Shown here one piece after another: positions 29,051 to 29,938 of a stretch of 41,465 nucleotides of DNA. Source of the stretch: a virus (Duplodnaviria; Heunggongvirae; Uroviricota; Caudoviricetes); the IMG/VR virus record IMGVR_UViG_2917881069_000006. One strand, 5' to 3'. How positions within the stretch are numbered: position 1 is the first letter of the stretch; each line of letters begins with the position of its first letter. The notes beneath the pieces were generated by a model that saw only the letters and a list, made by a program, of their open reading frames with translations, was not told the origin of the DNA and did no database searches. The translations under genes and the position numbers were made by a program.

Positions 29051-29320
29051 GCTTCACCTCCGCAGAGGTCAAACGTTGGATGCAAAGAATCGCAGGTGCA
29101 TTTCTGCATCTGTGAAGGGAGAAGAGAGTTTAGATTGTATGTGCGCATAAACGTCCCCGTTTAGCGCAACCCCACCGCCGGGTGTTCAGGCCGACAGCAG
29201 AAGAATTTTCTCTTATTGATAATTGAAAATCAAAAGAATTTTATCGGTAAATGATGTGATCAGATAAGAACCACATGATAGAATCCGCCGGATTTTTTAG
29301 TGTAACAAAAGAAAAAAATA

Positions 29321-29677
29321 ATGAAAAAAATGTTGGCTGTCGCATTGACAACCCTTTTGCTGACCGGATGTACCGTTCGTGTAGCAGACCTTACTGTAGC
29401 CAGTACAAAAAACTATAATTTAAATGGTGGTAAATTTTACAAAGGAAAACGCGTAACTGCAGAAGATAGCTATCCTGTTATCATCTTCCCAACAGGTATT
29501 CCCAATGTAAAAACTGCTGCCGATCGTGCAATCGAGCAAGACCGTTGCGCTGTGGGTCTGACTGACGTTGTTGTAACACAACTTAACCAATCATTCCTGG
29601 TTGGTAAAATTGGTTTACGTGTTGAAGGGAATCTCATTATTGACCGCAGCCTTCCTGGGTGCGAAAACGCAGGATGA
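29321..29677 (+). CDS. putative lipoprotein (moron, opposite strand to phage genes)
   Basis: 118 aa with signal peptide and lipobox LLTGC (MKKMLAVALTTLLLTGCTV...); own terminator immediately downstream; AT-rich codon usage. Confidence 0.6.
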   Translation: MKKMLAVALTTLLLTGCTVRVADLTVASTKNYNLNGGKFYKGKRVTAEDSYPVIIFPTGIPNVKTAADRAIEQDRCAVGLTDVVVTQLNQSFLVGKIGLRVEGNLIIDRSLPGCENAG

Positions 29678-29682
29678 TGATA

Positions 29683-29710
29683 GTAACCCACTTCGGTGGG
29701 TTACTTTTTA
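29683..29710 (+). terminator. intrinsic terminator of the lipoprotein gene
   Basis: Perfect stem GTAACCCAC-ttcg-GTGGGTTAC followed by TTTTTA. Confidence 0.8.
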
Positions 29711-29938
29711 TCTAAATCATATGTGCCGCCAACAAACAATATACAATTTACTCTAAATAGCTGTGGCAGCATTCTCTAACTTAATATTTATTCTGAAACA
29801 GAGTTAATTATTTAAAAATAAACTTCCCCATCAATCATATACCTGAGAGTACTTATCGCCTGTTGGGCAGATATTATTTTCATCAAAGGATAGTGTTTAA
29901 AAACAATACCATTCATAAAATAGATATCACATGTTTTG

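Follow-up and report, generated by a model that had tools for sequence, protein, structure and literature searches.

A PHROG 7441 lipoprotein gene with its own predicted transcription signals forms a moron-like cassette in a DLP12/phage-82-type lambdoid prophage

The window analyzed here, the whole of a 41,465-nucleotide stretch catalogued as IMG/VR record IMGVR_UViG_2917881069_000006 (Caudoviricetes), carries a small gene for a predicted lipoprotein that is inserted, as judged from the arrangement of the genes, against phage transcription, between a ybcK-like recombinase gene and the ylcH/ninB genes. We lean, with some reserve, towards reading it as a classical moron, that is, a low-GC (guanine plus cytosine) cassette of about 0.6 kb composed of a promoter, the lipoprotein gene and a terminator, which resides in a lambdoid prophage of the DLP12/phage-82 type and whose product would act at the envelope. 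By profile comparison, the protein belongs to PHROG 7441, a family that is catalogued as of unknown function and uncharacterized: residues 1–117 align with positions 1–117 of the 118-position profile (E 1.1e-67), and the Pfam and NCBIfam libraries returned nothing beyond signal-peptide matches.

An initial annotation of the window had described a lipobox protein encoded on the strand opposite to the flanking phage genes and followed by a perfect terminator, and our results bear out both statements. The open reading frame (ORF), whose translation starts MKKMLAVALTTLLLTGC, lies on the + strand, and every neighbor with a match to a phage family lies on the − strand. The N-terminus of the protein, which reads MKK-MLAVALTTLLL-TGC, displays a charged N-region, a hydrophobic core and the lipobox L-T-G-C (within LLLTGC), with residues 1–16 as the signal peptide, Cys17 (codon 29369–29371) as the residue to be lipidated and a threonine at position +2; by lipobox criteria, the product is thus a predicted lipoprotein of the signal peptidase II type. 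The Pfam LPAM_1 match to this region is sub-threshold (17.2 bits for a cutoff of 20). Five bases past the stop codon, AGTAACCCAC-TTCG-GTGGGTTACT followed by TTTTT constitutes an intrinsic terminator, with a predicted folding free energy of −19.9 kcal/mol (z −6.4) that none of 200 shuffled sequences equaled. Since the − strand version of the hairpin has no U-run, termination is predicted for the + strand, i.e. the lipoprotein transcript, only. An Rfam scan of the region yielded a single sub-threshold match, to rsmX (22 bits for a gathering score of 56), which overlies the terminator hairpin and which we judged to be fortuitous.

Upstream of the gene, the sequence contains a predicted extended −10 element for sigma-70, TGaTAGAAT (TGATAGAAT), located 36 nt ahead of the ATG and preceded, 17 bp upstream, by a weak −35 element (GTGATC), so that transcription would start near position 29291. 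Both ends of this arrangement recur among the homologs: among 88 related loci, collected from IMG/VR and from reference genomes, a TGnTAnn[A/T]T motif precedes the ATG at −65 to −25 in 81, and the stop codon is directly followed by a stable hairpin with a T-run in 83. The extended −10 motif was likewise present in seven of the eight independent contexts that we compared, and the signals accompany the gene in phages of Klebsiella, Salmonella and Cronobacter, in Pantoea and Aeromonas satellites and in the Serratia chromosome. Altogether, these features indicate that the lipoprotein gene almost certainly has a private promoter.

The DNA around the gene has sharp limits. On the left side, the match to phage 82 and further lambdoid phages ends near 29168, and some E. 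coli prophages, in which another moron is present, remain homologous as far as about 29234; on the right side, it is E. coli homology of the DLP12 type that resumes (Table 1). Homology therefore stops at both junctions, which delimits a mobile unit of about 0.6 kb. The GC content is 0.43 in the coding sequence (CDS) and 0.31–0.36 in its flanks, compared to 0.50 in the Q-to-ylcH and ren-P-O backbone. The flanks of the cassette have matches in 2753–3402 of 5426 complete E. coli genomes, and the lipoprotein gene is absent at the DNA level from all 5426. In E. coli EC96, the same slot is occupied by a frameshifted DUF4041 gene (L004, 3378–4879), and in E. coli ML35 by a gene for a protein with a P22AR C-terminal domain together with a gene for a 169-amino-acid hypothetical protein (L123, 2340–3407). 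As judged from these alignments, the slot between ybcK/ren and ylcH is a cargo hotspot of DLP12/82-type prophages. The same backbone genes flank the corresponding slot of E. coli K-12 (ren-emrE-ybcK-ybcL-ybcM-ylcH-ybcN in DLP12): a ybcK-like recombinase gene, ren and P on one side of the cassette; ylcH, ninB, ybcO, rusA and Q on the other. What differs is the cargo, here a single antisense lipoprotein gene and, elsewhere, DUF4041, P22AR-C or ybcL plus ybcM, the latter in the K-12 order. Furthermore, emrE was not found in the window, unlike in DLP12-type E. coli prophages. The moron status proposed in the initial annotation agrees with these data: with its own terminator, a predicted promoter, a low GC content and a slot that holds other cargo in relatives, the cassette qualifies as a moron by its sequence features.

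Table 1. Coordinates of the lipoprotein cassette and of the neighboring genes in the window
Feature	Position	Strand	Remark
Antiterminator Q	26814–27596	−	
RusA	27783–28208	−	
YbcO	28142–28471	−	
NinB	28595–29050	−	
33-amino-acid ORF	29047–29148	−	Place of ylcH/orf33 in related prophages
Left junction of the cassette	29169–29235		
AT-rich imperfect inverted repeat, TTGAT-N8-ATCAA	29216–29233		Fur-like element of the initial annotation
Predicted extended −10 sigma-70 element	29276–29284	+	Read from the sequence
Ribosome-binding region	29308–29314	+	AAGAAA in the window
Lipoprotein CDS	29321–29677	+	118 amino acids; PHROG 7441 match
Intrinsic terminator	29682–29710	+	10-bp perfect stem, TTCG loop, T5 tail
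Right junction of the cassette	29717–29793		E. coli DLP12-type ybcK homology resumes near 29794
Large serine recombinase, ybcK-like	29939–31339	−	Resolvase, Recombinase and Zn-ribbon domains
Ren	32728–33045	−	DNA matches to annotated E. coli ren genes; no Pfam match
P	33036–33737	−	

The PHROG 7441 family is large and conserved. A first search retrieved 328 relatives, the best 120 of which are 67–99% identical to the window's protein and come from Enterobacterales, Aeromonas, Pseudomonas and Shewanella. Clusters defined at 50% identity were detected to the number of 404, and a profile search collected 953 proteins, including a longer form of about 160–170 residues. The nearest database protein is an Escherichia albertii 'lipoprotein' (99% identity). 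The exact protein sequence is found in one NCBI assembly and in several metagenome contigs, with the same lambdoid context wherever flanks are present; the host is probably E. albertii or a close relative. The long form is encoded by a stand-alone chromosomal gene in Bacteroidota, Verrucomicrobia, Omnitrophota and other groups, and the neighborhoods of these homologs, in Bacteroidota and elsewhere, revealed no conserved gene partner.

The conservation of the gene bears on the idea that the cassette is decaying or functionless DNA that hitch-hikes in a degraded prophage region. Two observations would fit this idea: the neighboring recombinase gene is frameshifted, and the ribosome-binding site of the window's copy is weakened. 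More specifically, the Shine–Dalgarno region reads AAGAAA in the window (29311–29312) and in a near-identical assembly (L005), and AAGGAA in six near-identical copies (L006–L011), a G-to-A change that probably weakens translation. Against it, the ORF is intact and identical in eight independent contigs, and conserved homologs number in the hundreds. Compared to a Klebsiella phage copy, moreover, the protein is 89% identical and the DNA 76% identical, with proportions of non-synonymous (pN) and synonymous (pS) differences of 0.079 and 0.72, respectively; the resulting pN/pS ratio of about 0.11, at saturated synonymous sites, argues strongly for purifying selection on the gene. We thus consider functionless DNA to be the least probable of the explanations examined here.

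Folding of the 5′ untranslated region (UTR) of the window's gene predicted no structure (−1.8 kcal/mol). This region differs from that of the relatives, most of which contain, between the extended −10 element and the start codon, a nested palindrome (ATGTTTCC-GATTGCAATC-AAA-GGAAACAT) that is lacking in the window. The palindrome is seen at positions 3960–4000 of L001 and in most of L033–L120, just upstream of the homologous ATG. Its 3′ arm includes the Shine–Dalgarno sequence, and the RNA fold has a predicted free energy of −12.8 kcal/mol (z −1.8); in view of where transcription is predicted to start, the palindrome may instead be a DNA operator.

Three cysteines stand out in the alignments. 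Cys17 is invariant across 129 diverse homologs, and Cys76 and Cys114 are conserved and co-occur in all 121 members of the short mobile subfamily; the long chromosomal form has a glycine at position 76 and usually no cysteine at the position of Cys114. From this pattern, we infer a periplasmic Cys76–Cys114 disulfide. An AlphaFold2 model built from 129 sequences (mean predicted local distance difference test score of 87.3) comprises a strand (residues 17–27), a second strand (39–54), a helix (63–71) and two further strands (77–89 and 94–108), so that the mature domain would adopt a common small β-β-α-β-β fold. The first strand starts at the lipidated Cys17 itself; therefore, the modeled domain has no tether. 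Foldseek comparisons of the model with the PDB and with viral structures gave no meaningful match (all template modeling scores below 0.3), and a profile search of PDB sequences gave nothing. Note that a C-terminal LysM domain is present in 3 of 129 distant family members and a SHOCT domain in one, and that most long-form members bear an uncharacterized C-terminal extension of about 45 residues.

The initial annotation had also likened the protein to the lambdoid lipoproteins Bor and Cor. Kinship with them finds no support in our searches: the Pfam scan gave no match to the Lambda_Bor profile, LPAM_1 being the sole and sub-threshold hit, and the match to the Cor family, PHROG 1119, is confined to residues 1–19, i.e. 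the signal peptide (E 0.045). The protein nevertheless resembles Bor, Cor and Llp in that it is a small lipoprotein whose phage-borne gene has transcription signals of its own, and it is plausibly their analog as a periplasm-facing outer-membrane protein that protects the carrier. It differs from them by the lack of any sequence relationship, by its larger mature domain (about 101 residues) and by a family that spans far more host genera than would be expected of an FhuA-specific blocker. By analogy, a Bor/Cor-like envelope function in the lysogen is a reasonable proposal.

Other known proteins were considered. YbjQ/DUF74 (UPF0145) was discarded, there being no Pfam match and an hhalign probability of 0.1%; the YbjQ/DUF74 and dodecin folds form cytoplasmic oligomers and have no sequence signal linking them to the lipoprotein. 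RcsF was rejected as a relative as well: it shares 14% identity with our protein, and hhalign of the family profile recovers only the signal peptide. The lipoprotein might still mimic RcsF and enter the Rcs pathway, through IgaA or through BamA and porins, thereby switching the capsule on or off. This we regard as very unlikely, given this sequence distance and the structural differences: compared to the RcsF signaling domain (PDB 2y1b and 9biy), the lipoprotein lacks the long disordered, Pro/Lys-rich linker and has one cysteine pair instead of two, hence no second disulfide. Besides, family members from Pseudomonas, Aeromonas and Shewanella, genera that to our knowledge have no Rcs system, keep about 70% identity; such equal conservation further disfavors a role as an RcsF mimic.

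A second element of the initial annotation was a Fur box upstream of the gene, which would place the lipoprotein under iron control. The string concerned, TTGATAATTGAAAATCAA (29216–29233), contains one perfect GATAAT hexamer (29218–29223), and in the register of this hexamer it matches the Fur consensus GATAATGATAATCATTATC at 9 of 19 positions. The best match in the 152-bp region that extends from the end of lambdoid homology to the ATG is 12 of 19, a score reached by 545 of 2000 composition-matched shuffles (27%) and by 71 positions across the window; with the 7-1-7 Fur model, the score is 9 of 14, typical of shuffled sequences. Thus, scoring with either the 19-bp consensus or the 7-1-7 model puts the resemblance at chance level. 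In addition, the element lies 43–60 bp upstream of the predicted −10 element without overlapping the promoter, and its core, TGAAAATCAAA, is also present in the EC96 prophage, which carries the DUF4041 moron in the same slot; the element therefore belongs to the junction rather than to the lipoprotein gene. Finally, the upstream regions of homologs from seven other contexts score 10–13 of 19 at unrelated positions, with no recurring Fur-like site. On these sequence grounds, Fur control of the lipoprotein gene appears unsupported. The model proposed initially, a Fur-repressed lipoprotein of the Bor/Cor type that would be expressed under iron limitation and confer serum resistance or FhuA-type exclusion, retains in its favor the presence of a lipoprotein on a lambdoid prophage and the single GATAAT hexamer. 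Considering, on the other side, the chance-level match, the position of an element that also accompanies another moron, the absence of a conserved site among the homologs and the lack of Bor or Cor kinship described above, this model is largely refuted in silico, and we assign it a very low probability.

Relatives with about 60–99% identity are found, as cassettes with a promoter, the gene and a terminator, in diverse contexts. In siphophages of Klebsiella, Salmonella and Cronobacter, the gene lies between the major tail and tape measure genes, on the strand of the tail genes; in a Flyfo siphovirus, it follows the tape measure gene and adjoins two other morons, encoding a YafO toxin and an SmpA/OmlA lipoprotein. 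All of these phage-record relatives are thus located in tail modules, compared to an antisense location in the nin region here. In Pseudomonas prophages, the gene is found just upstream of the holins, and in P4-like satellites of Aeromonas and Pantoea, after the primase gene. A relative is also present in one Aeromonas T4-like phage, and 86 IMG/VR contigs, most of them the size of a prophage, contain others. In the Aeromonas satellites (L016, L018 and L019; 6001–7849), an Imm_superinfect gene (T4 Imm-like; PF14373, PHROG 1039) is located at a distance of about 1.3 kb from the lipoprotein gene, both being in the accessory region that follows the primase gene; the Imm_superinfect gene is the only known defense partner detected by PADLOC and PHROG scans of the neighbors in the other elements. 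In Serratia marcescens, finally, a copy occupies a fixed chromosomal site (L028–L030; 6001–6360). Such a distribution is that of an accessory gene useful to many kinds of mobile elements.

Some of these contexts could be taken to mean that the protein acts during the lytic cycle, either by blocking receptors late in infection so as to limit the loss of phages on debris, following the logic of T5 Llp, or by modulating lysis: the siphophage copies are co-directional within the tail operon, the Pseudomonas prophage copies immediately precede the holins, and the gene exists in a lytic T4-like phage. Such a role seems improbable to us, since the gene of the window runs opposite to the late and delayed-early transcripts and is equipped with a predicted promoter and a terminator of its own, the tail-module copies themselves keep a private promoter and terminator, and the position relative to the lysis genes is not conserved.

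The chromosomal members of the family raise another possibility, namely that the moron serves the fitness or virulence of the host independently of phages, for instance through envelope robustness, resistance to serum or antimicrobial peptides, or adhesion, from which the lysogen would profit in its host or in the environment. The long-form genes are ordinary chromosomal lipoprotein genes in many phyla, some members have C-terminal LysM domains, the high conservation is consistent with a conserved envelope target, and the Serratia copy adjoins genes for an lpxO-like hydroxylase and a lipid A acyltransferase. This Serratia copy sits between the hydroxylase/acyltransferase pair and fis-dusB, and its neighbors possibly hint at a role related to the envelope or lipid A, or are there by coincidence. 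However, satellites and a lytic T4-like phage of Aeromonas have the gene too, a phage-directed role is more natural for them, and no link to a known virulence family emerged. We therefore hold a phage-independent role to be rather unlikely, even if it surpasses the lytic-cycle proposal.

In the moron reading that we favor, the host sigma-70 RNA polymerase would transcribe the gene constitutively in the lysogen, and neither the phage repressor nor Fur would affect this. The precursor would be exported, lipidated at Cys17 and sorted by the Lol machinery to the inner leaflet of the outer membrane. In E. coli, an aspartate at position +2 is the Lol avoidance signal; sorting to the outer membrane is expected here because residue +2 is a threonine, not an aspartate. 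Having no linker, the compact domain, stabilized by the (probable) Cys76–Cys114 disulfide, would then directly abut the outer membrane on its periplasmic side, and it would bind a conserved outer-membrane component, so that the carrier cell would be protected from incoming phages or have its envelope otherwise altered. Superinfection exclusion of the Cor/Llp type is, by analogy, the leading functional guess, a tentative one that we would not put at even chances; the phage-independent envelope or fitness role discussed above is its main competitor, at a lower level still, and the other proposals rank below both.

Several points count against this favored reading. An identity of about 70% between Pseudomonas and Escherichia is unusually high for a protein that would mask a variable receptor. 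Serratia marcescens has its fixed chromosomal copy, and Bacteroidota and other phyla encode the long form in ordinary chromosomal genes; such chromosomal relatives indicate that the ancestral role was cellular rather than anti-phage. Screening against PADLOC-DB gave no match to a defense model at E values up to 0.1, none of the sources checked gives a functional name to the PHROG 7441 family, and full-text literature searches retrieved no paper on it; a Gifsy defense gene that came up as a candidate from the literature proved to be an unrelated ATPase. Moreover, the promoter is a prediction only, and a simple consensus scan does not list the extended −10 element because the −35 element is weak. 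Lastly, the window's own copy has the weakened Shine–Dalgarno sequence AAGAAA.

A broader version of the exclusion proposal would accommodate some of these points. PHROG 7441 might be an unrecognized family of envelope exclusion or protection proteins of Gammaproteobacteria that clamp a conserved outer-membrane machine from the periplasm. A chromosomal fold could have been captured, shortened, endowed with a disulfide and then exchanged, as a cassette, between satellites and phages of both the temperate and the lytic kind, and a conserved target in the outer membrane would explain the identity of about 70% from Pseudomonas to Escherichia. We consider this version possible but doubtful.

Several further features of the prophage deserve mention. 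The whole ylcH-ren block (29169–32727) has a low GC content (0.31–0.43 compared to 0.50), and beyond the lipoprotein and the recombinase all that it contains is small ORFs that match no family, such as a 79-amino-acid ORF at 31660–31899 (− strand). The ybcK-like recombinase gene, when followed over its full extent (29812–31339, − strand), is frameshifted near 29960–30009, so that residues 1–460 and the final 50 or so are read in different frames, as judged against an intact 508-residue copy (L009); in the near-identical assembly L005, no gene is called. It is probably either a pseudogene or the product of a sequencing error. Elsewhere, a gene for a DUF6979 protein (23991–24416, − strand) directly follows Rz/Rz1, at the place occupied by bor in lambda, and two genes lie between Q and a P21-type holin gene: one for a YnfU zinc-ribbon protein (25778–25948), on the opposite, + strand, and one for a cold-shock-domain protein (26230–26445, − strand). 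These three are likely to be further accessory genes of the prophage.

Prophage lipoprotein morons are a recognized route to superinfection exclusion and host fitness, and the element described here is therefore ordinary as a kind. What makes it worth noting is its family, which is uncharacterized, unusually conserved and unusually promiscuous: within the Gammaproteobacteria, PHROG 7441 reaches several orders and elements as different as lambdoid prophages, the tail modules of siphophages, P4-like satellites and a T4-like phage, and it always travels with private transcription signals. Dropping the claim of Fur control avoids a misleading annotation, and assigning a function to the family would give a name to several hundred genes now called 'hypothetical'.
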